NCBI GenBank assembly: GCA_963977445.1
Contig: CAXBPH010000102.1
Coordinates: forward strand, 1-21,841
DNA: 21,841 bases
Direction: 5' to 3'
Source of the DNA: an uncultured bacterium
GTDB taxonomy: Bacteria; Hydrogenedentota; Hydrogenedentia; Hydrogenedentales; JAEUWI01
Part shown: positions 2,779-19,439 of the stretch, piece after piece
How the letters are laid out: every line of letters begins with the position of its first letter
Position numbering within the stretch: the first letter of the stretch is position 1
Notes under the pieces: model-generated
What the model was told of the DNA's origin: nothing
The model's database searches: none
Seen by the model: only the letters and a program-made list of their open reading frames with translations
Translations under genes and position numbers: made by a program

Positions 2779-4593
2779 ATGAAGGGTACGGGTGAAACGG
2801 GCGGCGTAGTGGCATACGACTCAAGGCTCAAACTGGAGCGCGCGGGGCGCCTGCATTCGTTTCATTGGATTGTCATTGTTCTTTCTTTCTGCCTCACCCT
2901 CTTCGCGTGGCGCTTTTCCTCATTGGAGCATGCCAAACGCGTCGAGCAGCGTTTTGATCGTGAGGTTGAGCAGGTGCTTGCACTCATCGACGATCGAATG
3001 CAGAAATACGAGGATGCATTGTGGGGGGGCGTCGCTTTTGTTGAGGCCTTGGACTGCGAAGTTGACTATGGCCAGTGGAAGCGCTACGCCGATAGTATTC
3101 ATATTGAGCAGAAGTACCCGGGAATCAATGGAATCGGGATAATTCACGCCATTGCAGCCGTTGACCTACCCGCCTATCTCGCGGAGCAGCGTACCCTGCG
3201 ACCCACCTACGACATCCATCCGGAGCACGATGGGGACGAGTTCTACCCAATTTCCTACATTATTCCCCTGGAAGGCAACGAAAAGGCTGTTGGCCTTGAC
3301 ATGGCCCACGAAACGAATCGCTTTATGGCCGCGAAGAAAGCCCGGGATACGGGCCTGGCACAAATCACAGGACCCATATCCTTGGTTCAGGATGCGGAAA
3401 AGACCCCGGGATTTCTCTTCTACGCGCCCTATTACGCGGATGGTTTCCCAGAAACATTGGAAACGCGACGCTCTAGCTTCCTGGGCATGGTCTACGCCCC
3501 CTTTGTGGTCAAGAAATTGATGGATGGTGTGTTGTCCCGTGATCGGAGACAGGTGGGGGTAGGGATTTCCGACGAGGGGGAAGTTCTCTATGATGAAAAT
3601 GTTCCAGGGGAACAATTCTACGACGCTGATCCCATGTTTGTGCATACAGAAATCCTTTCGCGCTATGGCCGACAGTGGGAGTTTGATATTCGGAGCGCAA
3701 CCTCCTTCCGTACTGCTCATACTACGAGCCAGCCATTGACCATCCTTCTGGGTGGTATCATGATTGATCTGATGTTGATTGGGCTCTTCGTCTACTTGAC
3801 CCGCGCTTCGCGTAGCGCGCTGCAATATGCCGATCTCATGACCGAGGAAGTGGAACGTCGGGCGTTAGACCTGGAGCGCCTGAACCTGGAGCTGGAACAC
3901 ACCAATCGCGAGCTGGATGAATTCACCCACATCGCCTCTCACGACCTGAAAGAGCCACTACGCGGAATCAGGAATTATTCTTCTTTTCTCTTGGAAGACT
4001 ATGAAGACAAACTGGACGATGAGGGTAAGGACAAACTCAATACACTAATCACCCTTTCAGAACGACTAACCCAGTTTATTGATGATCTCCACCACATGGC
4101 CCGCCTCGGTCGGGAAGAGCTCAATGTGACTAAATGTGACATGGGAGCGCTGGTAACGGAGGTGGTCAGCACGTTGAAGCCTTGGCTGGAGAGTGAAAAC
4201 GCCGTAGTGGAAATTGCGTCTGATATGCCCAGTGCGCGGTGTAACCCGGTATACCTTGGGCAGGTATTTAGAAATCTCATCGCCAATGGGATAAAATATA
4301 ATACTGCCGAAGAAAAGAAAGTTACTGTGGGCATCAGCTACGGCCCAGACGGTGAACGGTCTTATTTTGTAAAGGACAATGGGATCGGTATCCCCGAGCA
4401 GCAATATGACAATGTGTTTCGAATTTTCAAGCGGTTGCACGCTCGGGACAAATTCGGTGGGGGCTCTGGTTCGGGGCTCACACTTGCAAAAAAAATTGTT
4501 GAACGACATGATGGTAGAATATGGATAGAATCGAAAGAAAATCGGGGGACCGTTGTTTTCTTTACATTGAACCTCGAAGGGGTGAGTAAGTGA
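2779..4593 (+). CDS. CHASE-domain sensor histidine kinase
   Basis: Two TM segments flank a CHASE domain (YPGINGIG, PLEGNEKAVGLD, AQITGPISLVQD). H-box FTHIASHDLKEPLRGI, N-box NLIANGIKY, G1 VKDNGIGI, F-box FRIFKRL, G2 GSGLTL. Start placed at ATG 2779 (GGAG 7 nt upstream); ATG 2773 or GTG 2692 are alternatives. Confidence 0.9.
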   Translation: MKGTGETGGVVAYDSRLKLERAGRLHSFHWIVIVLSFCLTLFAWRFSSLEHAKRVEQRFDREVEQVLALIDDRMQKYEDALWGGVAFVEALDCEVDYGQWKRYADSIHIEQKYPGINGIGIIHAIAAVDLPAYLAEQRTLRPTYDIHPEHDGDEFYPISYIIPLEGNEKAVGLDMAHETNRFMAAKKARDTGLAQITGPISLVQDAEKTPGFLFYAPYYADGFPETLETRRSSFLGMVYAPFVVKKLMDGVLSRDRRQVGVGISDEGEVLYDENVPGEQFYDADPMFVHTEILSRYGRQWEFDIRSATSFRTAHTTSQPLTILLGGIMIDLMLIGLFVYLTRASRSALQYADLMTEEVERRALDLERLNLELEHTNRELDEFTHIASHDLKEPLRGIRNYSSFLLEDYEDKLDDEGKDKLNTLITLSERLTQFIDDLHHMARLGREELNVTKCDMGALVTEVVSTLKPWLESENAVVEIASDMPSARCNPVYLGQVFRNLIANGIKYNTAEEKKVTVGISYGPDGERSYFVKDNGIGIPEQQYDNVFRIFKRLHARDKFGGGSGSGLTLAKKIVERHDGRIWIESKENRGTVVFFTLNLEGVSK

Positions 4594-5051
4594 TGCTTAC
4601 CGATAAGAAGATAATTATGTTGGTGGAGGACTCCCCGGAGGACTTCGAAGCCGTTCGTCGGGCCTTTAAGAAGGCGGAGGTGAGTACGTCGCTCGTGCGC
4701 TTCGAGAGTGGCGACGAAGCGTTAAACTACCTTTTTAATCGCGAGCCCGACGGGGTCAATAAAACACCACCCTTGCCGTCGCTCATCTTGCTCGATTTGA
4801 ATTTGCCGGGACTCGATGGTCGCGGTGTACTCCATAAAATCAAGGGGGATTCTGCACTGCACACCATCCCGATAATAGTCTTTACGACGTCGCGGGATGA
4901 AAAGGATGTCGATTTCTGCTATGAACACGGTGCCAATGGCTACATTCAGAAGCCCATATGCATGGAAGAGCTGGTGAGTACGCTAAGGCGATTTCATAGC
5001 TTTTGGTTCGAGACGGCAATTTTGCCGGATTTGGGTAATGGAATTGAGTGA
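4593..5051 (+). CDS. Single-domain response regulator (Rcp1-like)
   Basis: MLVEDS, LILLDLNLPGLDG, PIIVFTTS, GANGYIQKP, FW near the C-terminus. TGATG stop/start overlap with the kinase. Confidence 0.9.
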   Translation: MLTDKKIIMLVEDSPEDFEAVRRAFKKAEVSTSLVRFESGDEALNYLFNREPDGVNKTPPLPSLILLDLNLPGLDGRGVLHKIKGDSALHTIPIIVFTTSRDEKDVDFCYEHGANGYIQKPICMEELVSTLRRFHSFWFETAILPDLGNGIE

Positions 5052-5053
5052 GT

Positions 5054-5734
5054 ATGTCCAAGATATCGGTTAGCCTCCTGCTTATTGACGATTGCGATGA
5101 AGATCGCATTGTCTACCGCCGTAGTTTGAGAGGGAGTCCACGCTACGAGTACACCATCCATGAAGCAGCAACGCTGGAAGAGGGCGCGGCAAAATTCCAC
5201 GAAGTCAAGCCCGATGGCGTATTGCTGGACTATCGGCTTCCTGATAGCGAAGGGATGGAGTTCTTCGAGCGTGTTCAGGGAAGCTTAGAAGGAACAGACT
5301 TCTTTGTAATCATGCTGACAGGGCAGGGCAGTGAACTAATAGCCGCCCAGGTCTTGAATAGGGGTGCTTCCGATTACTTGCCCAAGAGCCATGTCAGTGG
5401 GGATATCTTAAATCAATGTGTTCACTCCGCCTACGATCGAATGCTTCTGCGGCGTGCGGTGGCGGAGGAGCAGCGCGAAAAGGATCGTGTCATCGAACGC
5501 CTTCAATTCGCCCTGACCAAAATAAAACAACTCAGTCACCTGTTGCCCATCTGTGCCCACTGCAAGAATATCCGAAACGACGACGGATACTGGGAAGCCG
5601 TAGAATCCTATTTTTCCGATTTCGCCGGTGCCGAGTTCTCCCATGGCATCTGTCCCGATTGTATGCAGAAGCATTTCGGGCTGAGCGAAGAAGAAGTCTC
5701 TGAATTTAAAACGGAAAATCCGCCGACCGGTTGA
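5054..5734 (+). CDS. Response regulator with a C-terminal Cys-rich (CxxC...HGICxxC) domain
   Basis: Receiver LLLIDD, VLLDYRLPD, IMLTGQG, GASDYLPK. C-terminal LPICAHCKNIR...W...FSHGICPDC. Starts 2 nt after the previous stop. Confidence 0.87.
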   Translation: MSKISVSLLLIDDCDEDRIVYRRSLRGSPRYEYTIHEAATLEEGAAKFHEVKPDGVLLDYRLPDSEGMEFFERVQGSLEGTDFFVIMLTGQGSELIAAQVLNRGASDYLPKSHVSGDILNQCVHSAYDRMLLRRAVAEEQREKDRVIERLQFALTKIKQLSHLLPICAHCKNIRNDDGYWEAVESYFSDFAGAEFSHGICPDCMQKHFGLSEEEVSEFKTENPPTG

Positions 5735-5757
5735 CGTAGCACACGGTCAGGCTTGTT

Positions 5758-6660
5758 TCATTGGTCTACCTCGTATAATTTTCGCATCTCCCTATCGTGA
5801 AGCAGGTTCAATCCGGTTGGGTGCGCCGTGCGGTGGGCAAGTGCGTTTGCGTCATTAACCAGGAATTCGACCACTTCATTGGGTTCCGCCAGCCACACAT
5901 CGTCACCACCAAATGCCTTTACTGCTTCGAAGCGGGCCCGTAGTTCCTGTGACGTGCAATCTTTCGCCGGGTGAACGGCCACGTCGGGTTTGGGCATATG
6001 GCAGTAGTCCACCACCCATCCTTCCATCACCTGGGCCTGTTGAAGACGTTTCCACGGATCAAATTGAGAATAAAAGGGGCCGGGGTATTCCGTATGGAGC
6101 GGCGTGCGGCCGAGCCACATTAAATCCGTATCCAACGTATTTATCTTGTCGTAGATGGTGAGGATCGCGTCGTAGCCCGCTTCGGAAGCCGTGGCGATGG
6201 CGGGCGCATGACCATGGTTACTGCCAGGTACCGTAAAAATCGGGATTGAAACACCGAGTTTTTCGGCGAGCACCTTTCGGGCATCCACAACTTCTACCTG
6301 GGCATTTTCGTGGGTCACGCCGACGTGGGTCATGGAATGGCAAGAGGCCCCCCAGCCTTCCGCCATAAGCCCCTTCATCTGCTCAGGACTCAACGTCATC
6401 ATGTCGTGGTAGCTGCTTCCGGGCACGTTCCGAGGGATGCCCAGTTGGGAAGAGACAAAGGCCACATGGCCCGGGATGCCAAATTCCCGGTGGATGGGGA
6501 CGGCATAGTCGAGCAGGCCCGCACAGCCTTCGTCGTAGGTGATGGAATAGACCCATTTTTTGCCGTCTTTCCACGGGCCATCAGATTTGGCAAGGGCGGG
6601 CGAGGCCATCGCGGTACCCGCAGCGGCACCACTCAGGGAGAGGAAGCTTCGACGATCCAT
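5758..6660 (-). CDS. Tat-exported polysaccharide deacetylase (CE4/NodB)-like protein
   Basis: Twin-arginine signal MDRRSFL...ASPALA. SITYDEG (TFDDG-like), ASCHSMTH (HS/TxxH), DYCH. RBS AGGAG. Confidence 0.75.
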   Translation of the reverse strand: MDRRSFLSLSGAAAGTAMASPALAKSDGPWKDGKKWVYSITYDEGCAGLLDYAVPIHREFGIPGHVAFVSSQLGIPRNVPGSSYHDMMTLSPEQMKGLMAEGWGASCHSMTHVGVTHENAQVEVVDARKVLAEKLGVSIPIFTVPGSNHGHAPAIATASEAGYDAILTIYDKINTLDTDLMWLGRTPLHTEYPGPFYSQFDPWKRLQQAQVMEGWVVDYCHMPKPDVAVHPAKDCTSQELRARFEAVKAFGGDDVWLAEPNEVVEFLVNDANALAHRTAHPTGLNLLHDREMRKLYEVDQ

Positions 6661-6759
6661 TGGGGAACTCCTGTGTTCAGTTGCAGTAATGTCACTCGGG
6701 CTCTGGAAATAGACACGGGGCTCATCGGGAGGACGGTAGACTTGCCGAGTCGAACCCCT

Positions 6760-7848
6760 TTACTCCTTGCTCCTGTCTGTGAGATTAATCCATGACACCT
6801 GGGTGATCAAATGATTCAATGAGGCAAATGAAATCGACGCGTTGGTGGCATAAGCCGGGCTGCTGTTGGCAGGAAAGGTCGCCATCGTCGCATCACCCAC
6901 GAGAAACACGTTGAAGTCTTTCGAAAAATTATTGTAGCCGCAGGTCGTGCTGATGTAACACATATCGGTGGCGTAGCCCGTCATGAGGACGTGGCGGATA
7001 CCGTGTTCCTTCAGAAAGTCGCGGATGGCGTCGTAGCCGTCGGCATCGTAATGGACCACGTCGTTGTGGGCGACTTCGATGGTGTCGACCACGGGAACGG
7101 GAAGCTCCCAGAAGCCCTTGCCATTGTAGTGGTCGCCCGAATCGAGGCCGGGGAAATTCTTGAAATAGTCCGCGACCTTGTTCTCGTCATAGAGGGTCAG
7201 TCGGTCGGGAACATCTTGCGCGTCGTAATCGAAGCCGTTCAGAATTTCGGCCAATTCTTTTTTCCCCTCGGCCCGCTCTTCGGCGGAGGGGTTCTTGCGA
7301 ATGGTGCGGTAGATCTTGTCCAGCGGCGGCCGCTCCTTGTCCCGCTGGCTGTACACCACCATGCCCACCTTGTCCCGCATACGCTTCAAGAAGGGATTGA
7401 GCACTTCCTTGATGTGGAGGTGGGAGATATGGTTTTTGGTGGGGGTGCAAAAGTCTGCGACGCCCGCCGGTTCCGGGGAGCGCCAGCCCTGGTTGTCATC
7501 AATGGCCCAGGGGTGAACGACGATAATGGCTGTCTCCGACGCACGGAGGTGGTTGGGCATCTCAATGATGCCCCGCGCGTTGTAAGAAAAGCGCCAGGCC
7601 CGCACGTCGAGGTCCGCGTCTTCGTCGCGCACCAAGGCCGGGGCCTCAAAGCGGGTTTCCTCTTCCACCGGCTGGAAAAACTCGGGGTGTTCCGCCAGCA
7701 GCGGCGCGGGATTGTCTAGTTTTGTCAGGGTGTTATGGTACGTGGAGAAGGTGGGACTCCCATTTATCGATGCCTTTTGCAGCTCGGCCGACATGGGGGC
7801 GGCCGCGACCAGAATCAGGAACAGGGCGAGTCTTGAAAAGCTTTTCAC
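6760..7848 (-). CDS. Secreted isochorismatase/cysteine-hydrolase-like protein
   Basis: Sec signal peptide. ETAIIVVHPW at the first beta-strand, GIRHVLMTGYATDMC (nucleophile Cys motif), FNVFLVGDAT. GTG start with RBS GGAG. Confidence 0.65.
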   Translation of the reverse strand: MKSFSRLALFLILVAAAPMSAELQKASINGSPTFSTYHNTLTKLDNPAPLLAEHPEFFQPVEEETRFEAPALVRDEDADLDVRAWRFSYNARGIIEMPNHLRASETAIIVVHPWAIDDNQGWRSPEPAGVADFCTPTKNHISHLHIKEVLNPFLKRMRDKVGMVVYSQRDKERPPLDKIYRTIRKNPSAEERAEGKKELAEILNGFDYDAQDVPDRLTLYDENKVADYFKNFPGLDSGDHYNGKGFWELPVPVVDTIEVAHNDVVHYDADGYDAIRDFLKEHGIRHVLMTGYATDMCYISTTCGYNNFSKDFNVFLVGDATMATFPANSSPAYATNASISFASLNHLITQVSWINLTDRSKE

Positions 7849-7862
7849 GGCTGCGGGTTCTC

Positions 7863-9608
7863 CTATGGGATATTGCGTTCAGCCCGAGGATTCTCGGTGT
7901 TTGGAAGGCGAACTTCTATTTCCACTATACCGTTTTCCGGCACAACATGAATGACAGGATACTGTATCGGCTGGGGGTCTACCAAGAATAGCTTTCCCAT
8001 GCCCACGACGTGGGGAGGCCGATGTCCATCGACTTCGATGCGGGTGATTATTCCCTTCAGCATGTTGAGTGTAACGCCGTTCTTCCAGACAAGCTCGTTG
8101 TCCACGAGTTCCGGGAACTCATGGCAAATAAAGGACCAAGATTCCTCGGACACGACAAACTTTGCATGGACCCGCCCGGGCCGGTCAAGTCTCGCTTCGA
8201 TTTGGGGTGTCTCACCATTGGTTGCGGTGAGACTCGTTGTTGAGCCAGCGTTCGACAGGGTGACGAGGGGCTTTTCTTCGCCCTCCGCAGGGCCCGGATT
8301 GCTGCCCTGAAAGATCAGCTCTCCTCCGGCGTGGATCAGCAACTCGGACGTGTCCTTCAACGCGACCAGTAGCCCGTCGGGCTTCCAGTCCGCGCGGGCA
8401 TAGGCCTCGCCGACGGAGGGGAAATGATAGGAAAGGGGGGCGTCGCCGGGTCCAGGCACCACGGTGGCGTCGTACCAGACATAGGCGTAGCCACCGAGCT
8501 CGAAGAGCAATTGTTCTTTGCGGGTTGGCGTGATATAGCGGGTCTTCTGGATCTGGCCGAGGGACTGGTCCCACAGGGCCAGGGTCTGGGCAGTGCCATT
8601 GCGGTATTCCCGGGCGAGGGCCAAGAGCACGGGTGCGTAATAGTCCAGTTGCCCGTAGGGCGGTGAAAACAAGACACTCTGATTGGGTTTATTCCAACCG
8701 GGTTTCTTTCCCGTAGCCACCGAGGCGAGGGCGAGGTCTGCTTTCATTTGCTTTTCGAAGGGCCGGTAGAGATCCTTGCCTGTCACCCGGCGGAGGGCAT
8801 CCATAAAGAAGAGGCGGTAGTGCATGGTGGATGCCCAGAAGGTCGCCCCTTCGATTTGGGCTCCATCGTCTGCCAACCCCAGAGGGAGCAGGTGCTCCTC
8901 AAACTTTTTGGTCGTGAGCGCGAGCCAATCGGAGGCCTCGGGCACTTCGTCTAAGAGTGCCAGGGCCACCACGCCCAAAGAAGAGAACTCTACCACGGCA
9001 TGATGGGTGTGGAAATCGGCCCCCGTCTTTTCCGGCGTGTTGAAATAGTCGGAGTAGTAGTTTCCCGCCGTTGCGGAAAGCATCGTGATGATTTCCGAAC
9101 GCTCTTCCTCAGAAAACTGGTCATAGGCCAGATCGTAGGCTACCGCGATACCCTTGAGAAGGCGGGAGACGGCATAGGCCTTGCCCCCATCGGGTGTCGC
9201 ATCGGCATCCGGTCGCCACGCACGACAAGAGGCCAGGGTCCACGCCCGGGTCGCCTCTCCATAAGTCGCCTCGCCACTCAGGGCATAGGCAAAGGCGAGG
9301 TGCTCCGTAATGGCCATGTCCATCATCATGGCGTAGAATCGGACATAGAGATTCTCATAGACCGGGTCGTCGGCTACCGGGGCTATCCAATCTTTGCGGG
9401 GCGTTTGCGTCAGGCACCAATCCGCGGACTCGGCGATATTTTCCCAGATGCGTGCATGAACACCCCCGGCGCGCAGTGCCCGTAGCGCGCTTTGCTCGGT
9501 TTTCGTGATATAGAGGCGGGGGTGGGTGCTCGGAATTTCCGCTCCGCCCGCCTGGCCAACGTAGACCAGCACCATAGCCAGAAAGATCACCGGTAGTAGT
9601 CGTCTCAC
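7863..9608 (-). CDS. Secreted DUF4962 / heparinase II/III-like (alpha/alpha-toroid lyase-like) protein
   Basis: Signal peptide. HPRLY, LAFAYALSGE, AVAYDLAYD, DDGAQIEGATFW (DG..EG..YW-like) and FPSVGEAYARADW are typical of this lyase-like fold. GTG start with RBS AAGGA. Confidence 0.65.
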   Translation of the reverse strand: MRRLLPVIFLAMVLVYVGQAGGAEIPSTHPRLYITKTEQSALRALRAGGVHARIWENIAESADWCLTQTPRKDWIAPVADDPVYENLYVRFYAMMMDMAITEHLAFAYALSGEATYGEATRAWTLASCRAWRPDADATPDGGKAYAVSRLLKGIAVAYDLAYDQFSEEERSEIITMLSATAGNYYSDYFNTPEKTGADFHTHHAVVEFSSLGVVALALLDEVPEASDWLALTTKKFEEHLLPLGLADDGAQIEGATFWASTMHYRLFFMDALRRVTGKDLYRPFEKQMKADLALASVATGKKPGWNKPNQSVLFSPPYGQLDYYAPVLLALAREYRNGTAQTLALWDQSLGQIQKTRYITPTRKEQLLFELGGYAYVWYDATVVPGPGDAPLSYHFPSVGEAYARADWKPDGLLVALKDTSELLIHAGGELIFQGSNPGPAEGEEKPLVTLSNAGSTTSLTATNGETPQIEARLDRPGRVHAKFVVSEESWSFICHEFPELVDNELVWKNGVTLNMLKGIITRIEVDGHRPPHVVGMGKLFLVDPQPIQYPVIHVVPENGIVEIEVRLPNTENPRAERNIP

Positions 9609-14258: not shown

Positions 14259-14322
14259 AGTACAGTCCAAGCTCCAGATGAAATTCCGATGTTGCCTGGG
14301 GATACGCGCCCAGCACCGCGCC

Positions 14323-14358
14323 CAATAAAACCAGTCTAGCGGGGAGGCTGTTTTATTG
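14323..14358. terminator. Stem-loop with A/T-tract flanks (possible bidirectional terminator)
   Basis: CAATAAAA-c-CAGTCT-loop-AGGCTG-TTTTATTG: an 8-bp perfect outer stem and a 6-bp inner stem containing one G-U pair. Confidence 0.35.
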
Positions 14359-14509
14359 CAACCTGAGTGTTGAGCATCAACTGATATGATGCCTTGTGAC
14401 AGGGTTTGATTCCGAAATATTGCAACTACGGCTTTGGCCTCGCGTATAGCACGTTTTCCAATAGCAACTTTTTATTATCGACGAATTGGTTGGGGGATTT
14501 TGAAAAATT

Positions 14510-14597
14510 CCTGTAAGCCTATACAGGTTGTGATCAGAGTCGAAACTCTATAACATAACCAGTACTATTATCATCTGCTCTAGTATTAACCAAGGAG
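14510..14597 (+). promoter_or_regulatory. Putative sigma70 promoter with flanking palindromes and RBS
   Basis: CCTGTA-N6-TACAGG (14510-14527); TTGTGA(14528)-17 nt-TAACAT(14551); TACTA-N13-TAGTA (14563-14585); AAGGAG at 14592. Confidence 0.4.
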
Positions 14598-14610
14598 AGC
14601 GTCGAGAGCT

Positions 14611-16128
14611 ATGGATACGGGCATTGATCCAAAAGAATCTGATTTCGATATAGCGGCAAGGTTTGCAACACTATTAGGCTCAATCGAAAATCTCGACGGA
14701 GAGCAATATGCTCTAATAGAAAATGAAAGAGATTTTGGGAAGGCAATGTCTAAACACCTTGATGAGCAGCAACTTCAGGCGGAGAATTTGTCGCAGAAGG
14801 CGAACAATTTAATGGGTGAATTGAATTCTCTATTTCGTAAAACAGAAAAGTTTCATCGCTCATTTCTAGAAGAAAGAGATAATTTGGCCACTGAACGGGA
14901 ACTCTTTGAGCTCGACAAGCAAGACCTGCAGCTGGATCGTGAAGAATTTGAAGCCGGTGAGTTGAAAAGTCGGATGGAACAGAATTCGGAGTTTGAGAGC
15001 GACAGGCGAGACTTTAGTGACGCGAAGGAAATATTTGAACGGGAAAAGAAAGGGTTTGAACTTGAGCGATTACGAATAGATGCAGAGATGAAATCCAAGC
15101 GTCTCGCTCTAGAAGTCGAGTATCAAGCGCGTTGCGCTGAGTTGGTCGATGATTCTTCGCGACATCAAGAAGTCTCGCAATTAGCAGGTAGTAATTCGCT
15201 CCGCTTGGTCGTACCAGAGCAAGCGCGTGATGAAGAAAGTTCCTATATCCAAGCATTTACATTGCTGCAGGAATACCTCGAAAGTACGTTCGGGATGTTA
15301 CCTTTTCGTACACAAATTCTATCGACAGACCGCCGAGAAGTAAATCTTCAGAATTCGATATCTTGGCTAATGCTCAATATACACACCAAACAGGCACTGG
15401 AGCGCTTGAAAATTCGAACTTACGGAGATTTGCTCAACTGTACAGCTGAGGATATTCAAAGAAAGGCGGGTCTATCCGATGAGCAACTCCGCTACCTCCA
15501 AGAAAAGATGGGTTATGCGGGGATTTCCTTTGAGTCCATCACACCCTCGGTCGGCTCACCGGACGACCCTGTGCAATGGATTAAATCATGTATAAGAATG
15601 CTCGGCGGAGCGTCGAATACTGAGAATAAAGTGGTGCAGAATCTCGAAGTAGTAGATGAGGAGTCAATATATAGTACTCCGAGAGCTTCTGATGATTTAG
15701 GTACAACTCAGAGTGAGCAAAGTACAAATCTGTCTCGTGGTTCATCGGAAATTATTGCGAGTACTGATACGCGTCGAAGTTCCGCTGTCAGGCGGGTTTA
15801 TTCGGTTTCTGCGGAAAGTTGGTTTGCCGCATTTAGGTTATCAGAAAGATTAAATAAGTTTTCGCCCGAGGAACGTATGCTATTACGCGACACTGGGGAA
15901 TTGATTAGGGCCCAATCGTCGATTGAAGATACACATGCGGATAAAGTTATTTTCTTGTATACCGCACTCCACGCGGCTATGGAAAATCAGGCATCGGGCT
16001 CAGAAACTGGTGCGTCTGGGTTGCCTGCCTCGACAGATAATCGTCTGGGGGAAAATTCTTCGGCAGAGATGCTAAAACGAAGCACGATAGATTCACCGCT
16101 ACTTAGTCGGGCCAATCTCATCGATTGA
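14611..16128 (+). CDS. Hypothetical protein: coiled coil, RNA polymerase alpha-CTD-like domain, C-terminal helical domain
   Basis: 505-aa ORF with RBS. Acidic heptad repeats at about aa 85-162. Residues 246-307 (LQNSISWLML...IRTYGDLL...GISF) align by eye without gaps to alpha-CTD. Confidence 0.75.
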   Translation: MDTGIDPKESDFDIAARFATLLGSIENLDGEQYALIENERDFGKAMSKHLDEQQLQAENLSQKANNLMGELNSLFRKTEKFHRSFLEERDNLATERELFELDKQDLQLDREEFEAGELKSRMEQNSEFESDRRDFSDAKEIFEREKKGFELERLRIDAEMKSKRLALEVEYQARCAELVDDSSRHQEVSQLAGSNSLRLVVPEQARDEESSYIQAFTLLQEYLESTFGMLPFRTQILSTDRREVNLQNSISWLMLNIHTKQALERLKIRTYGDLLNCTAEDIQRKAGLSDEQLRYLQEKMGYAGISFESITPSVGSPDDPVQWIKSCIRMLGGASNTENKVVQNLEVVDEESIYSTPRASDDLGTTQSEQSTNLSRGSSEIIASTDTRRSSAVRRVYSVSAESWFAAFRLSERLNKFSPEERMLLRDTGELIRAQSSIEDTHADKVIFLYTALHAAMENQASGSETGASGLPASTDNRLGENSSAEMLKRSTIDSPLLSRANLID

Positions 16129-17528
16129 GGAATGAAAATCAGATGCAGTGGGAAGAGAAGCTACGTAGCATTGGTGCCGGGGCAGTTGTCGACAAAGGTG
16201 TAAGCGTCAAGTATGACGGAATTCGACTTCCAAGGTTTATATCAGAATTCTTGTTGTCAGAATTCATGATTCGCTATGGTGATCAAGAAGAAGCGATAAA
16301 GCGGATGTCTGAGTTTATTGACAACAATATCCCTCAGCCGGGACATGCATCACAGTGGCATAACCGACTTCGCCTGGGTGAGAGATGTGAATTGATTGAT
16401 AGTGTGCGTGTTGCGGTTCATATGGAGCAACTCGAGACGGAACCGATGGTGAGTATTCCATCAATAGGGCTGCGAAAGACGCGTATTGATTCCGCGCTGC
16501 TCGATGCCAATCCTCGACTATTAAGGGAGGGGATCTGGGGTAAGGCGACCTTGGAAGCACGAAATGGCATGGTTTGGCTTGTGGATCTTAAGCCGTTTCA
16601 AGTTTCTGACGTTTCTATCGATGGTTTCATGGAGATTCGGAAGAATTTTACTCGTGATGAATGGGCAGAGATACTCGTCAGTACAATCGGTCTGTCACCC
16701 CTAAACTTTTCGGATCATAGAAAACAACTTATCCTGATTTCGCGATTACTTCCATTGGTCCAATCGCAGACTTTTCTCATAGAACTGGGCCCCCCCGGTA
16801 CCGGCAAGACCTTTGTATTGGACAAGCTATCTACTCGCTCTTTTGTGATTTCTGGGAGCAAGATTAGTCCCGCGCAGCTTTTCTATGATATTAGAGCAAA
16901 AACGGAAGGGCTATTACGGCAGTATTCCGCCCTATTGTTAGATGAGGTTGACAAAGTTCATGACAAAGAGCTTTCGGAAGAGGTTGTAAATAAACTCCTA
17001 AAATATATGGAATCGGGTACGTTCGATAGAGGGGGATTGGAATTTCAAAGTGATACATCGTTAATCATGGTGGGGAATTTACCTCAGGGGTTTCGTTCGG
17101 GTGGCCCAGTAATTCAGACTCTGCCAAATAAATTCACCCACGAGGCATTTTTGGATCGAATAAATGGAATACTACCCGGTTGGGAACTTTCCGCCGTTAT
17201 GCACTCTTCTTCAAGTCTCACAAAAACCTGGGGCTTTTCAGCAGACTATTTCAGCGAAGTATTAGAGCATCTACGGCAACTAGACTGGGTACCAGAACTA
17301 CGTCACAGAATTTCCTTTGATGGGTGTTCCATTCGTGACGAAAAGTCGATCATGAGAACTGTGGCGGGTCTTTGCAAGCTCATGTACCCTGACAGGGTTA
17401 TAACAGATGAGAACCTGCAGAGTATATTGGTCTTTTCCCTGGAGATCAGGCAGACTTTACTCGATGAGAGTGCGCTTCTTCACCACTCGCGTACGCGTCA
17501 CATTTCGGCAACAGTAAGACAAACTTAG
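16125..17528 (+). CDS. brxL: BrxL-family AAA+ ATPase, short form without the Lon protease domain
   Basis: VVDK..LPRFISEFLL, PRLLREGIWG, FTRDEWAEILVSTIG, RLLPLV, Walker A ELGPPGTGKT, SG..SPAQLFY, Walker B LLLDE, YMESGTFDRG, AFLDRINGILPGWE, GFSADYFSEVL, SIRD. TTG start overlaps the upstream stop; ATG 16143 is an alternative. Confidence 0.85.
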   Translation: MRNENQMQWEEKLRSIGAGAVVDKGVSVKYDGIRLPRFISEFLLSEFMIRYGDQEEAIKRMSEFIDNNIPQPGHASQWHNRLRLGERCELIDSVRVAVHMEQLETEPMVSIPSIGLRKTRIDSALLDANPRLLREGIWGKATLEARNGMVWLVDLKPFQVSDVSIDGFMEIRKNFTRDEWAEILVSTIGLSPLNFSDHRKQLILISRLLPLVQSQTFLIELGPPGTGKTFVLDKLSTRSFVISGSKISPAQLFYDIRAKTEGLLRQYSALLLDEVDKVHDKELSEEVVNKLLKYMESGTFDRGGLEFQSDTSLIMVGNLPQGFRSGGPVIQTLPNKFTHEAFLDRINGILPGWELSAVMHSSSSLTKTWGFSADYFSEVLEHLRQLDWVPELRHRISFDGCSIRDEKSIMRTVAGLCKLMYPDRVITDENLQSILVFSLEIRQTLLDESALLHHSRTRHISATVRQT

Positions 17529-17542
17529 GAACGAGGGCGACT

Positions 17543-17905
17543 ATGTTTCAAATTGATAGCACAAGTTCAATTCCGGCGTTTGAGCAGTTGGAGTTTTGTG
17601 TTAAGGCTGCTATGGCTTCGGGGCGGCTTCGCCCACATGAACAACTTCCGTCTATTCGCGAAATTGCAGATTCAGTCAACTTGAATCCTAATACCGTGGC
17701 CAAGACATTTCGTGGATTGGAAGTAGATGGGTTCGTTTACACACAGAGAGGTCGCGGTATCTTTGCGGGCGAGGACACTCGTGAAATGGGGAGCGAATTC
17801 TGCCGCTCGAAATTGAGTAAAATGTATTCTGAGATCCAAAAGCTTGCCTTAGATGCAGGTATTTCGATAAATGATTTGGCAATAGGAGAAGGGAAAGGAT
17901 CTTAA
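17543..17905 (+). CDS. GntR-family transcriptional regulator (YtrA subfamily)
   Basis: 120 aa. P.FEQL, LRPHEQLPSIREIA, LNPNTVAKTFRGLEVDG, TQRGRGIF, and a short C-terminal helix ending A..AGIS, as in YtrA. Confidence 0.9.
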   Translation: MFQIDSTSSIPAFEQLEFCVKAAMASGRLRPHEQLPSIREIADSVNLNPNTVAKTFRGLEVDGFVYTQRGRGIFAGEDTREMGSEFCRSKLSKMYSEIQKLALDAGISINDLAIGEGKGS

Positions 17906-17990
17906 GCGCGTTGATACCTCGTGTAACATCTTTATGGGACCTGAAAACTACAAGTGTCGCATTAGTACGAGAAGGAGAATTTACATATTT

Positions 17991-19439
17991 ATGAGCCCGC
18001 TGATTGGCCGCTTTCTGAAGTGTTTGTTGTTAATCACTGCGCTTCTTGGGGCGTTAAACTCGGCGTCTGAACGCCCCAACATCATCCTCCTCATGGCCGA
18101 TGACCTCGGATGGGGCGATGTGGGTTTCAATGGCGGCGAAATCATCCAGACGCCTCACCTGGACGCCATGGCGGCGGCGGGCCTGAAATTTAATCGCTTC
18201 TACGCGGCCGCGCCCGTGTGCAGTCCTACCCGGGGGAGTTGTCTCACAGGACGACATCCCTATCGCTATGGCATTCCCTTTGCCAATGAAGGCCATCTGA
18301 AAGAAGGTGAACGGACCCTGGCGGAAGTACTGAAGGGGCAGGGCTATCGCACGGGACATTTTGGCAAATGGCACCTCGGCACCTTGTCGCCCGACTACTC
18401 GGGGAAGAAAGGGCGCGGCGGTCTGGAGCACTATGCCACGCCGGGGATGAATGGTTTTGACGAATGGTTCAGCACGGAGTTTGCCGTCGCCACCTGGGAC
18501 CCCTATGACCCCGCCAATTCCCATTTGGGCAAGGACGTGCCCTTTGACACACGGGCGCTCTATTGGCACAACGGCGTCAACGTGGAAGGCGGCCTCGAAG
18601 GCGACGACTCCCGCATTATCATGGACAAGGCCATTCCCTTCATCGAGGACTCCGTAGCCCGATCGAAGCCCTTCTTCTCCGTCATCTGGTTTCACGCACC
18701 CCACAATCCGGTTGTGGCGGGCCCAGAGTACCGGGCGCGCTATGGGCAATACGATGAGGATGCCCAGCACTATTATGGGTGCGTCACGGCCCTGGACGAA
18801 CAAGTGGGACGGCTCCGTGCGACCCTGCGTACCCTCGGTGTAGCGGAAAATACCATGGTCTTCTTCTGCGCCGACAATGGCCCCGAGGGCGATGTGGCGG
18901 GGGGGCGAAATCAGGGTTCCAGTGGTCCCTTTCACGGCCGCAAGCGCTCCTTGTTTGAGGGGGGGATACGGGTGCCGGGGCTCCTCGAATGGCCTGCCGG
19001 GGTAAAACCGGGCACAGCGACAGACTACGCGGCGGTGACGAGCGACTATCTGCCCACCATCCTGGACGTGTTGGGTATTGAGCGAATTGACCAGCGCCCC
19101 CTGGATGGCGAGAGTCTCCTGCCCCTGATTCGGGGAAAGCGCACGATACGTAGCTCGCCCATCGCTTTCGAGACCAAAGGCGGCGCGGGCGAAATGTTGT
19201 CACGAAATTCGCCCCACGTGGCCCTGATCGAAGAGCGCTTCAAGTTGCTGACCGACTTCAGTGAAGATGGTGAGGAAGATCTGCTCTATGATCTGCTCGA
19301 AGACCCGGGGGAGACCAGGAACCTTGCTGGTACCCGGCAGGATCACGTATCGCGGATGAAGTCCATACTTTCCACATGGCGGGCCAGCTGCGCACGGAGC
19401 GACAGTGGGGCAGATTATGAGAGAATTGGCGGAAAGTAG
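17991..19439 (+). CDS. Formylglycine-dependent sulfatase (arylsulfatase-like), secreted
   Basis: Signal peptide, RPNIILLMADDLG, CSPTRGSCLTG (CxPxR), GKWHLG, APH, DNG, GRKRSLFEGGIRVP, LYDL..DPGE. ATG 17991 follows AAGGAG. Confidence 0.93.
   Translation: MSPLIGRFLKCLLLITALLGALNSASERPNIILLMADDLGWGDVGFNGGEIIQTPHLDAMAAAGLKFNRFYAAAPVCSPTRGSCLTGRHPYRYGIPFANEGHLKEGERTLAEVLKGQGYRTGHFGKWHLGTLSPDYSGKKGRGGLEHYATPGMNGFDEWFSTEFAVATWDPYDPANSHLGKDVPFDTRALYWHNGVNVEGGLEGDDSRIIMDKAIPFIEDSVARSKPFFSVIWFHAPHNPVVAGPEYRARYGQYDEDAQHYYGCVTALDEQVGRLRATLRTLGVAENTMVFFCADNGPEGDVAGGRNQGSSGPFHGRKRSLFEGGIRVPGLLEWPAGVKPGTATDYAAVTSDYLPTILDVLGIERIDQRPLDGESLLPLIRGKRTIRSSPIAFETKGGAGEMLSRNSPHVALIEERFKLLTDFSEDGEEDLLYDLLEDPGETRNLAGTRQDHVSRMKSILSTWRASCARSDSGADYERIGGK

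Follow-up and report, generated by a model that had tools for sequence, protein, structure and literature searches.

In the anti-phage BREX (bacteriophage exclusion) systems, BrxL is stated to be specific to types 1 and 4, and in the published passages that deal with it the protein co-purifies just loosely with the other BREX components. The BrxL of type 4 combines a sigma-HTH-like region and an OB fold (together BrxL_N) with an MCM-like AAA+ core and has no C-terminal domain (PMC12839542). The type-1 BrxL of Acinetobacter is an AAA+ ring ATPase whose pore binds double-stranded DNA (dsDNA), and some BREX systems require it for restriction (PMC10164562). Here we describe a BrxL of the short type-4 form that is encoded away from PglZ and BrxC, in a row of three genes on contig CAXBPH010000102.1 of an uncultured Hydrogenedentota bacterium (assembly GCA_963977445.1). 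The window, as we call the whole stretch of 21,841 nucleotides (nt) that was analyzed, is the entire contig C102 of a genome of 7.1 Mb in 464 contigs (G000). We propose that the three genes are a BREX-derived module from type-4 BrxL that works without PglZ, BrxC or a modification enzyme and is probably defensive, a reading whose chances we rate as about even.

A short BrxL ATPase in a probable three-gene operon

Three open reading frames (ORFs) follow one another on the forward strand, encoding proteins of 505, 467 (when read from a TTG) and 120 amino acids (aa). They lie in a stretch where composition profiles give a GC content of 0.37-0.53 over ~14325-18075, compared to 0.54-0.67 on either flank (Table 1). 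Gene 2 encodes the BrxL protein. Both of its domains score above the curated cut-offs (PF20442, BrxL_N, 74.3 bits with a cut-off of 28.2; PF13337, BrxL_ATPase, 284.3 bits with a cut-off of 25), and TIGR02688 is matched over profile positions 6-442 of 449 with 355.2 bits (cut-off 329.3). The model of the long type-1 BrxL, TIGR02653, is covered at positions 5-446 of 675 and reaches 230 bits against a cut-off of 628; the Lon-protease-like C-terminal domain is absent, the protein ending at 461-467 aa. The domain order, the scores above the curated cut-offs and the intact Walker A and B motifs place gene 2 in the BrxL family, where it is the known short form of type-4 BREX and not a truncation. It shares 38-43% identity with type-4 BrxLs and 29-32% with the three long BrxLs of its own genome.

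Gene 2 most likely starts at ATG 16143, because the database call comprises 461 aa, three close homologues start at a Met equivalent to residue 7, and a GAGGA at 16128-16132 lies 10 nt 5' of this ATG. Hence, the likelier layout has a gap of 14 nt between genes 1 and 2. The preliminary description of this stretch, made from its letters, had reported tight coupling with a 4-nt overlap of these two genes. Such an overlap arises solely with the TTG start at 16125 and does not stand, whereas the 14-nt spacing of genes 2 and 3 does; genes 1 and 2 are tightly coupled even without the overlap.

The third gene encodes a GntR regulator, with a winged helix-turn-helix (wHTH) domain that scores 40.4 bits for PF00392 (cut-off 27). 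Its top NCBIfam matches are the Rv1152 and PmtR models (120-125 aa), both under cut-off. GntR proteins of the YtrA-like subfamily have a very short C-terminal region (~120 aa in total) and are typically linked to ABC-transporter genes. With its 120 aa, gene 3 would fit a YtrA-like regulator; no ABC transporter adjoins it in the window. YtrA-like GntRs are abundant in this clade, with several copies per genome, and a word-indexed protein search gave just six relatives of gene 3 at E up to 1e-10.

When the 12 other ORFs of the window were scanned with Pfam and PADLOC, no PglZ, BrxC or other PADLOC defense family was found, apart from generic phospholipase D (PLD) matches that belong to a cardiolipin-synthase-like protein. 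The co-occurrence of PglZ and BrxC at one locus that marks BREX is thus not seen in the window; both are encoded on other contigs of the genome. At least four BREX-type loci are present there, all off the window contig: PglZ together with a long BrxL on C10, C41 and C84, and BrxC-PglZ-BrxD-BrxHI on C39, preceded by NsnA/REase-like and SIR2-like genes. A further BrxC is found on C122, and the genome is unusually BREX-rich.

The preliminary description had seen three co-oriented genes in an AT-richer island between unrelated genes, had named them as an alpha-CTD coiled-coil protein, a BrxL ATPase and a GntR regulator, and had found no other BREX gene in the window. This observation is confirmed overall by the ORF calls, the GC profile, the ordinary flanks, the domain scans and, for gene 1, the structural matches given below.

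Short BrxLs without PglZ form a clade of their own

Scans with a BrxL alignment at ≥38% identity yielded 11 loci from 185,579 species genomes and 22 loci from JGI metagenomes. PglZ lies directly upstream of BrxL in 15 of the scanned loci, two of which (L041 and L062) are type-4 BREX as judged by matches to BrxP, SspB-like, SspC-like BrxC, PglZ and BrxL. The remaining loci are without PglZ, and the adjoining same-strand gene was taken as the partner of BrxL. This partner is a WD40 protein upstream of BrxL in L034 and an ankyrin-repeat, Lcl_C or unassigned protein downstream of BrxL in L049-L058.

In a tree of 41 rows (IQ-TREE in 'quick' mode, rooted on the long BrxLs of G000), the short BrxLs not beside PglZ fall into one clade of 24 rows with an SH-aLRT support of 98; the gene context is readable for 14 of them and unreadable for 10. 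This clade splits into a subclade of 9 rows that contains the window BrxL (support 96) and a WD40/ankyrin subclade of 15 rows (support 100). All 14 PglZ-linked rows are placed outside this clade. Long-branch warnings make the deep joins provisional; with this qualification, the tree points to the short BrxLs without PglZ as a lineage separate from the BrxLs of type-4 BREX.

Some further features of these loci were observed. The BrxL ORFs of L049 and L053-L058 are 726-736 aa long and begin with ~260 additional residues before BrxL_N that match no Pfam family, an extension seen in many BrxLs of the WD40/ankyrin subclade. Directly upstream of the non-BREX BrxL pair of L058, at 5728-9116, lie the genes for a 781-aa protein with a PD-(D/E)XK nuclease domain and for a 328-aa Fic/DOC plus helix-turn-helix protein. 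In seven type-4 BREX loci (L037, L039, L040, L063-L065 and L070) two conserved STAND-like NTPase genes directly follow brxL, encoding a protein of ~475 aa with nSTAND1 and one of ~541-556 aa with nSTAND1 and Schlafen AlbA_2; they may be an accessory pair.

Partners of unrelated fold share a C-terminal peptide with type-4 PglZ

The tail motif was defined as R-x-x-[LIVMF]-x-D within the last 12 residues. It is present in 16 of the 18 non-PglZ partners, the misses being P0006, which ends differently, and L056 (...FDSF), and in 10 of 15 type-4 PglZ proteins (12 if E is allowed); the three PglZ misses end in [KQ]R[ED]LF. As background, 32 of the 5421 predicted proteins of G000 (0.6%) carry the motif, and a stricter form is found in a single one, gene 1 itself. 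The non-PglZ partners are proteins of unrelated kinds (coiled-coil/alpha-CTD, Zn-ribbon/TPR, WD40, ankyrin and Lcl_C). Compared by BLAST without their last 15 residues, they sort into five groups that show no mutual similarity at 1e-3.

The variant of the tail tracks the BrxL clade. Members of the window family end in ...RANLID, ...RTNVID, ...RSDLID, ...RVNLID or ...RTSMLD and the partner in L033 in ...RTQIID, the WD40, ankyrin and other partners in ...R[EKD]SF[DS]DF, and most type-4 PglZ proteins in ...RR[TAN]FDD.... Nine metagenome loci, seen after the idea of the tail had been recorded, carry it on a downstream partner. A constraint from the ribosome binding site cannot explain the conservation of the tail, because some partners lie 3' of BrxL.

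A complex prediction for BrxL with residues 385-505 of gene 1 returned 'weak support' with a score of 0.37, and the best of three controls scored 0.00. The runs agree in at least 75% of the contacts, and the gene 1 part has a model confidence (pLDDT) of at least 66. The mark applied to such predictions is reached by 116 of 157 solved complexes compared to 2 of 215 mismatched pairs; at scores of up to 0.60 there are just 18 of the 157 solved complexes, plus both passing mismatches.

Gene 1 carries an RNA polymerase alpha-CTD-like domain

Gene 1 has no Pfam match at E up to 0.01 and no PADLOC family. Its AlphaFold2 model (mean pLDDT 67) consists of a long helix, a small domain, a disordered linker, a four-helix domain and a disordered tail. 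For the small domain, residues 250-305, the Foldseek matches listed are all RNA polymerase alpha chains or structures of the C-terminal domain of the alpha subunit (alpha-CTD). One of them, 1z3e_B, superimposes with a root-mean-square deviation of 1.1 Å over 55 columns and a TM score of 0.76 by target. In agreement with this, the gene 1 family profile matches RNA polymerase alpha in the PDB at E 6.5e-5, and NCBIfam gives weak rpoA matches. By its compact helix-hairpin-helix, the fold of PF03118, the domain is alpha-CTD-like; its sequence stays below the PF03118 threshold.

A feature search in a protein atlas gave no usable match. The structure rows of the atlas contain clusters of free-standing alpha-CTD-domain proteins, which are commonest in Planctomycetota and some of which have tetratricopeptide repeat (TPR) fusions; in this region of the tree the alpha-CTD fold has thus been put to use outside RpoA as well.

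Recurrence of the three genes

Among 61 related genomes the partner is found in one, G000 itself. A word-indexed search of 5.8 billion proteins with gene 1 found gene 1 alone, and HMMER, run exhaustively against 1.8 billion representatives, returned four other relatives, in which the coiled coil and the helical domain are kept along with the alpha-CTD-like motif and the C-terminal peptide (alignment A1). Relatives of two or all three proteins in public assemblies (Logan/NCBI) coincide in their longest-contig values: at 4470 nt the partner P0132 (29% identity to the window protein), BrxL P0135 (73%) and GntR P0139 (62%); at 1999 nt BrxL P0009 (76%) and GntR P0136 (69%), with no partner seen; at 12600 nt the partner P0004 (26%) and BrxL P0133 (74%), and at 4053 nt the partner P0007 (29%) and BrxL P0012 (69%), both with no GntR seen. 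Over these cases BrxL retains 69-76% and GntR 62-69% identity and the partner just 26-29%, which, at the level of sequence, indicates a much higher rate of evolution in the partner than in BrxL and GntR.

The nearest relative with readable context is found in the congener G006, where a contig of 4877 nt encodes, on the same strand, the 3' part of brxC and, directly after it, a 499-aa protein of the coiled-coil/alpha-CTD type and a 62%-identical BrxL. This genome is 93% complete and gives no match to PglZ (PF08665). The brxC fragment has no significant BLAST similarity to type-4 BrxC proteins or to the BrxCs of G000. That the pair is merely a type-4 locus whose PglZ was exchanged for another protein was considered; the brxC fragment gives this no support.

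In L033, a contig from Sumerlaeota, the gene for a 530-aa Zn-ribbon/TPR-like/coiled-coil protein precedes that of a BrxL with 48% identity, and no BREX genes are present in 13.8 kb. Just upstream of this pair, at 4472-5103 on the reverse strand, a PIN-domain-like ORF of 139 aa and a small upstream ORF of 71 aa resemble, by eye, a vapBC-type toxin-antitoxin pair.

Taken together, the evidence that the trio is conserved elsewhere is good but indirect. The recurrence of these neighbors, about which the preliminary description had asked, is suggested by the equal longest-contig values and by the pair of G006, and fails for the GntR gene at L033.

Proposed function and alternatives

The most likely function that we infer for the three genes is defense against phages or other invading DNA. 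Defense is favored by the BREX ancestry, by a base composition that looks foreign, by the patchy occurrence, by the extreme divergence of the partner, by the range of repeat-type partners and by the defense-type neighbors of the relatives, namely brxC in G006, the vapBC-like genes (by eye) in L033, and the Fic and PD-(D/E)XK nuclease genes in L058. The low GC content and the restriction of the partner to one of the 61 related genomes would fit a horizontal acquisition of the operon, which is part of the same evenly balanced reading.

Gene 2, in which both the DNA-binding N-terminal region and the MCM-like AAA+ core are intact, would encode a ring-shaped, ATP-driven motor that binds dsDNA. Gene 1 may act as a fast-evolving adaptor or sensor that is tethered to the BrxL ring by its C-terminal peptide, and the similar tail of PglZ would play the same tethering role in type-4 BREX. 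Once it recognizes a trigger or a target, be it DNA or protein, the adaptor would recruit or license the ring, which may then block the replication of the invader. BrxL has been described as a chamber that binds dsDNA in an ATP-dependent manner (PMC10164562), which suggests that it acts as a roadblock to the DNA of an invader. The GntR protein most likely represses the operon, by presumed autoregulation. A wider version is conceivable, in which short BrxL rings are BREX-independent modular immune motors with a portable docking peptide and interchangeable sensors, the PglZ peptide recruits BrxL in type-4 BREX, and an alpha-CTD-like decoy senses transcription-hijacking phage factors and licenses the BrxL clamp; this we consider quite unlikely.

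Several points weigh against the proposed defense module. It contains no recognizable nuclease or other effector. The tail motif is short and was defined from the first examples, many of the loci are mutually related, and the complex score is weak, with one of the three runs at 0.02. The BrxL tree combines a 'quick' method with the long-branch warnings. The side-by-side placement of the relatives in the 4470-, 1999-, 12600- and 4053-nt cases is deduced solely from the equal longest-contig values, the BrxL gene of G006 is cut by the contig end so that the presence of GntR is not readable there, and L033 has no GntR. In the profile alignment the gene 1 family is unconserved under the 'VRSYNCL' and 'NLGRKSL' stretches of alpha-CTD, which we take to be its DNA-binding determinant; hence, the ligand of the gene 1 domain may be a protein and not DNA. 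Finally, the resident BREX loci could in principle use the gene 2 BrxL in trans.

Instead of defense, the trio might serve as a regulator of transcription or of the nucleoid, the alpha-CTD-like domain engaging RNA polymerase partners or promoter DNA, BrxL remodeling or clearing DNA-bound complexes under some stress and the GntR protein sensing a metabolite. Such a role would suit a fold best known from transcription, of which free-standing examples occur in Planctomycetota clusters, YtrA-like regulators that are abundant housekeeping proteins in the clade, and a module without nuclease or toxin. It is difficult to reconcile, however, with a partner this rare and patchy (one of 61 relatives, four others in 1.8 billion representatives) that has diverged to 26-29% identity while BrxL holds 69-76%, with the low GC content of the island, with BREX components as the nearest kin of BrxL, and with the brxC, toxin-antitoxin and nuclease genes that adjoin the relatives. 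We therefore judge a transcriptional role to be unlikely.

Three intact ORFs with the catalytic motifs kept, the recurrence of the trio at 62-76% identity and the grouping of the non-PglZ BrxLs in one clade argue against an orphan or decaying BREX fragment, that is, an escaped BrxL that is now inert or serves a resident BREX system in trans. At least four BREX-type loci in the same genome could receive such a BrxL, and the relative in G006 adjoins the brxC fragment; yet the three type-1-like loci own a long BrxL, their PglZ proteins lack the R-x-x-[LIVMF]-x-D tail, and the locus on C39 has its own helicase, BrxHI. Together with the missing PF08665 match in the nearly complete G006 genome, this makes the orphan explanation decidedly improbable. 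A small integrated mobile element whose replication or maintenance module consists of an MCM-like ring helicase, a loader or adaptor and a repressor could account for the low-GC island and for a small wHTH repressor as its last gene, and the BrxL ATPase is indeed described as belonging to the MCM family (PMC12839542). The island measures just 3.7 kb, however, no integrase, relaxase, origin-like repeats or flanking direct repeats were found in it, and scanning viral contigs with the BrxL alignment gave one weak 36% fragment only, which renders this origin very improbable. All three alternatives are less well supported than the BREX-derived module.

The preliminary description had read the trio as a minimal sensor, motor and repressor system built on a stand-alone BrxL outside BREX. 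This interpretation is partly supported: the locus contains no BREX gene other than brxL, the module recurs, and its BrxL belongs to a clade of its own; at the same time BrxL is not stand-alone in the genome, which harbors its BREX-type loci elsewhere. That the trio could be a decayed remnant, if its closest homologues sat in complete BREX loci, gains from the brxC 3' fragment beside the nearest readable relative and loses from the lack of a PglZ match in that genome. The sensor, motor, repressor and defense roles are what we infer from these comparisons.

Flanking genes and other features of the window

The genes on either side are ordinary. They encode an FGGY kinase, a CHASE histidine kinase, two response regulators, a polysaccharide deacetylase, the cardiolipin-synthase-like protein with its two PLD domains, a DUF7133/HEAT/cytochrome c protein, a sulfatase and RimK. 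The sulfatase ORF has its first ATG at 17934; a signal-peptide-like stretch comes after the second Met, at 17991, the similarity to orthologues starts only at 18072, and this second Met is probably the true start.

A test for insertion by synteny among eight congeners gave no clean empty site. Orthologues of the sulfatase are present in seven of the eight, and the sulfatase-RimK pair is kept in G003 only, where the contig ends ~600 nt upstream of the pair and the DNA similarity to the window begins at 18072, within the sulfatase gene. The DNA 5' of the pair in G003 (C67, L085) differs from that in the window, which suggests a variable spot; the 3' end of a transposase-like gene lies, by eye, at the contig edge. 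Direct or inverted repeats flanking the island were limited to short matches at chance level.

In the intergenic region upstream of gene 1 a perfect palindrome, CCTGTA-N6-TACAGG, is a candidate operator for the GntR protein; its core occurs 5 times across the genome with 4.8 expected, which is the chance rate. A scan for sigma-70-type promoters gave 3 sites with 5.3 expected, none of them 5' of gene 1. The hairpin at the left edge of the island has the look of a bidirectional terminator, though no gene ends there.

Table 1. Positions of the three genes, their domains and motifs, and the surrounding features in the window.
Feature	Position (nt)	Strand	Basis
Low-GC island, 3.7 kb, carrying genes 1-3	14325..18075	.	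composition profiles
Divergent intergenic region, 340 nt, 5' of gene 1	14271..14610	+	sequence
Near-perfect hairpin, 9-nt outer arms CAATAAAAC/GTTTTATTG, GC-rich inner stem	14323-14358	.	sequence
Candidate GntR operator, perfect palindrome CCTGTA-N6-TACAGG	14510-14527	.	sequence only
Gene 1, 505-aa partner/adaptor P0001	14611..16128	+	ORF call; no Pfam family
Gene 1 residues 39-192, one long helix, presumed coiled coil	14725..15186	+	AlphaFold2, pLDDT ~79-97
Gene 1 residues 250-305, RNA polymerase alpha-CTD-like helix-hairpin-helix	15358..15525	+	Foldseek, PDB profile, NCBIfam, atlas structure rows
Gene 1 residues 391-462, small four-helix domain, family-conserved	15781..15996	+	pLDDT ~87-96; alignment A1
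Gene 1 residues 496-505, conserved C-terminal peptide PLLSRANLID, core R-x-x-hydrophobic-x-D	16096..16125	+	alignments
Gene 2, short BrxL-type AAA+ ATPase, 461 aa	16143..17528 (alternative TTG 16125)	+	domain profiles, start evidence
BrxL_N	16179-16556	+	domain profile
BrxL_ATPase	16575-17471	+	domain profile
Walker A GPPGTGKT, residues 222-229 of TTG frame	16788..16811	+	invariant in alignment A2
Walker B D273-E274	16941-16946	+	invariant in alignment A2
Gene 3, 120-aa GntR regulator, probably YtrA-like	17543..17905	+	wHTH residues 20-74, nt 17600-17764

Comparison with known systems

The arrangement, a candidate new module in the preliminary description, appears to be undescribed. The PADLOC models of 2023 recognize gene 2 as 'BrxL' only and leave genes 1 and 3 unmatched. 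The sections and passages considered from a 2026 BREX survey mention no BrxL outside BREX and no tail on PglZ; a term search in the survey found neither 'standalone BrxL' nor 'WD40', and its single 'tail' refers to BrxC. Full-text literature searches gave nothing relevant on BrxL-like proteins, TIGR02688 or BrxL with ankyrin, and no passage retrieved describes the arrangement.

With type-4 BrxL (TIGR02688) the window protein shares the domain set, the family score and a neighboring gene that ends in an R-x-x-hydrophobic-acidic tail. The locus differs from type-4 BREX by the lack of PglZ, BrxC/SspC, BrxP and DUF4007, by its coiled-coil/alpha-CTD-like neighbor, by the separate clade of its BrxL and by the attached GntR gene. 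A BrxL clade without PglZ, BrxC and a modification enzyme offers a minimal setting in which to study the motor alone. As the sole conserved feature of its partners, across unrelated folds, is a C-terminal peptide that type-4 PglZ also carries, the module bears on two questions of BREX biology, how BrxL is recruited and what it does.

Compared to type-1 BrxL, the N-terminal and ATPase domains are homologous, whereas the Lon-like domain, through which two rings of the solved assembly are held together tail to tail, is absent from gene 2, and the window BrxL does not lie beside PglZ. BREX loci with BrxR resemble the window locus in being defense-type operons with a small DNA-binding regulator of their own; as described for these loci (PMC9122589), BrxR is an upstream protein of the WYL family, whereas the regulator here is a GntR, probably YtrA-like, and the last gene. 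The trio is a candidate two- or three-gene system for defense catalogues.

STAND/Avs designs combine a conserved ATPase with highly variable repeat sensor modules. The BrxL clade likewise pairs an ATPase with variable modules, here WD40, ankyrin, TPR and coiled coil. It differs from STAND/Avs in that sensor and ATPase are separate genes, linked, as we hypothesize, by a short C-terminal peptide, and in that a BrxL/MCM-like ring takes the place of the STAND NTPase.

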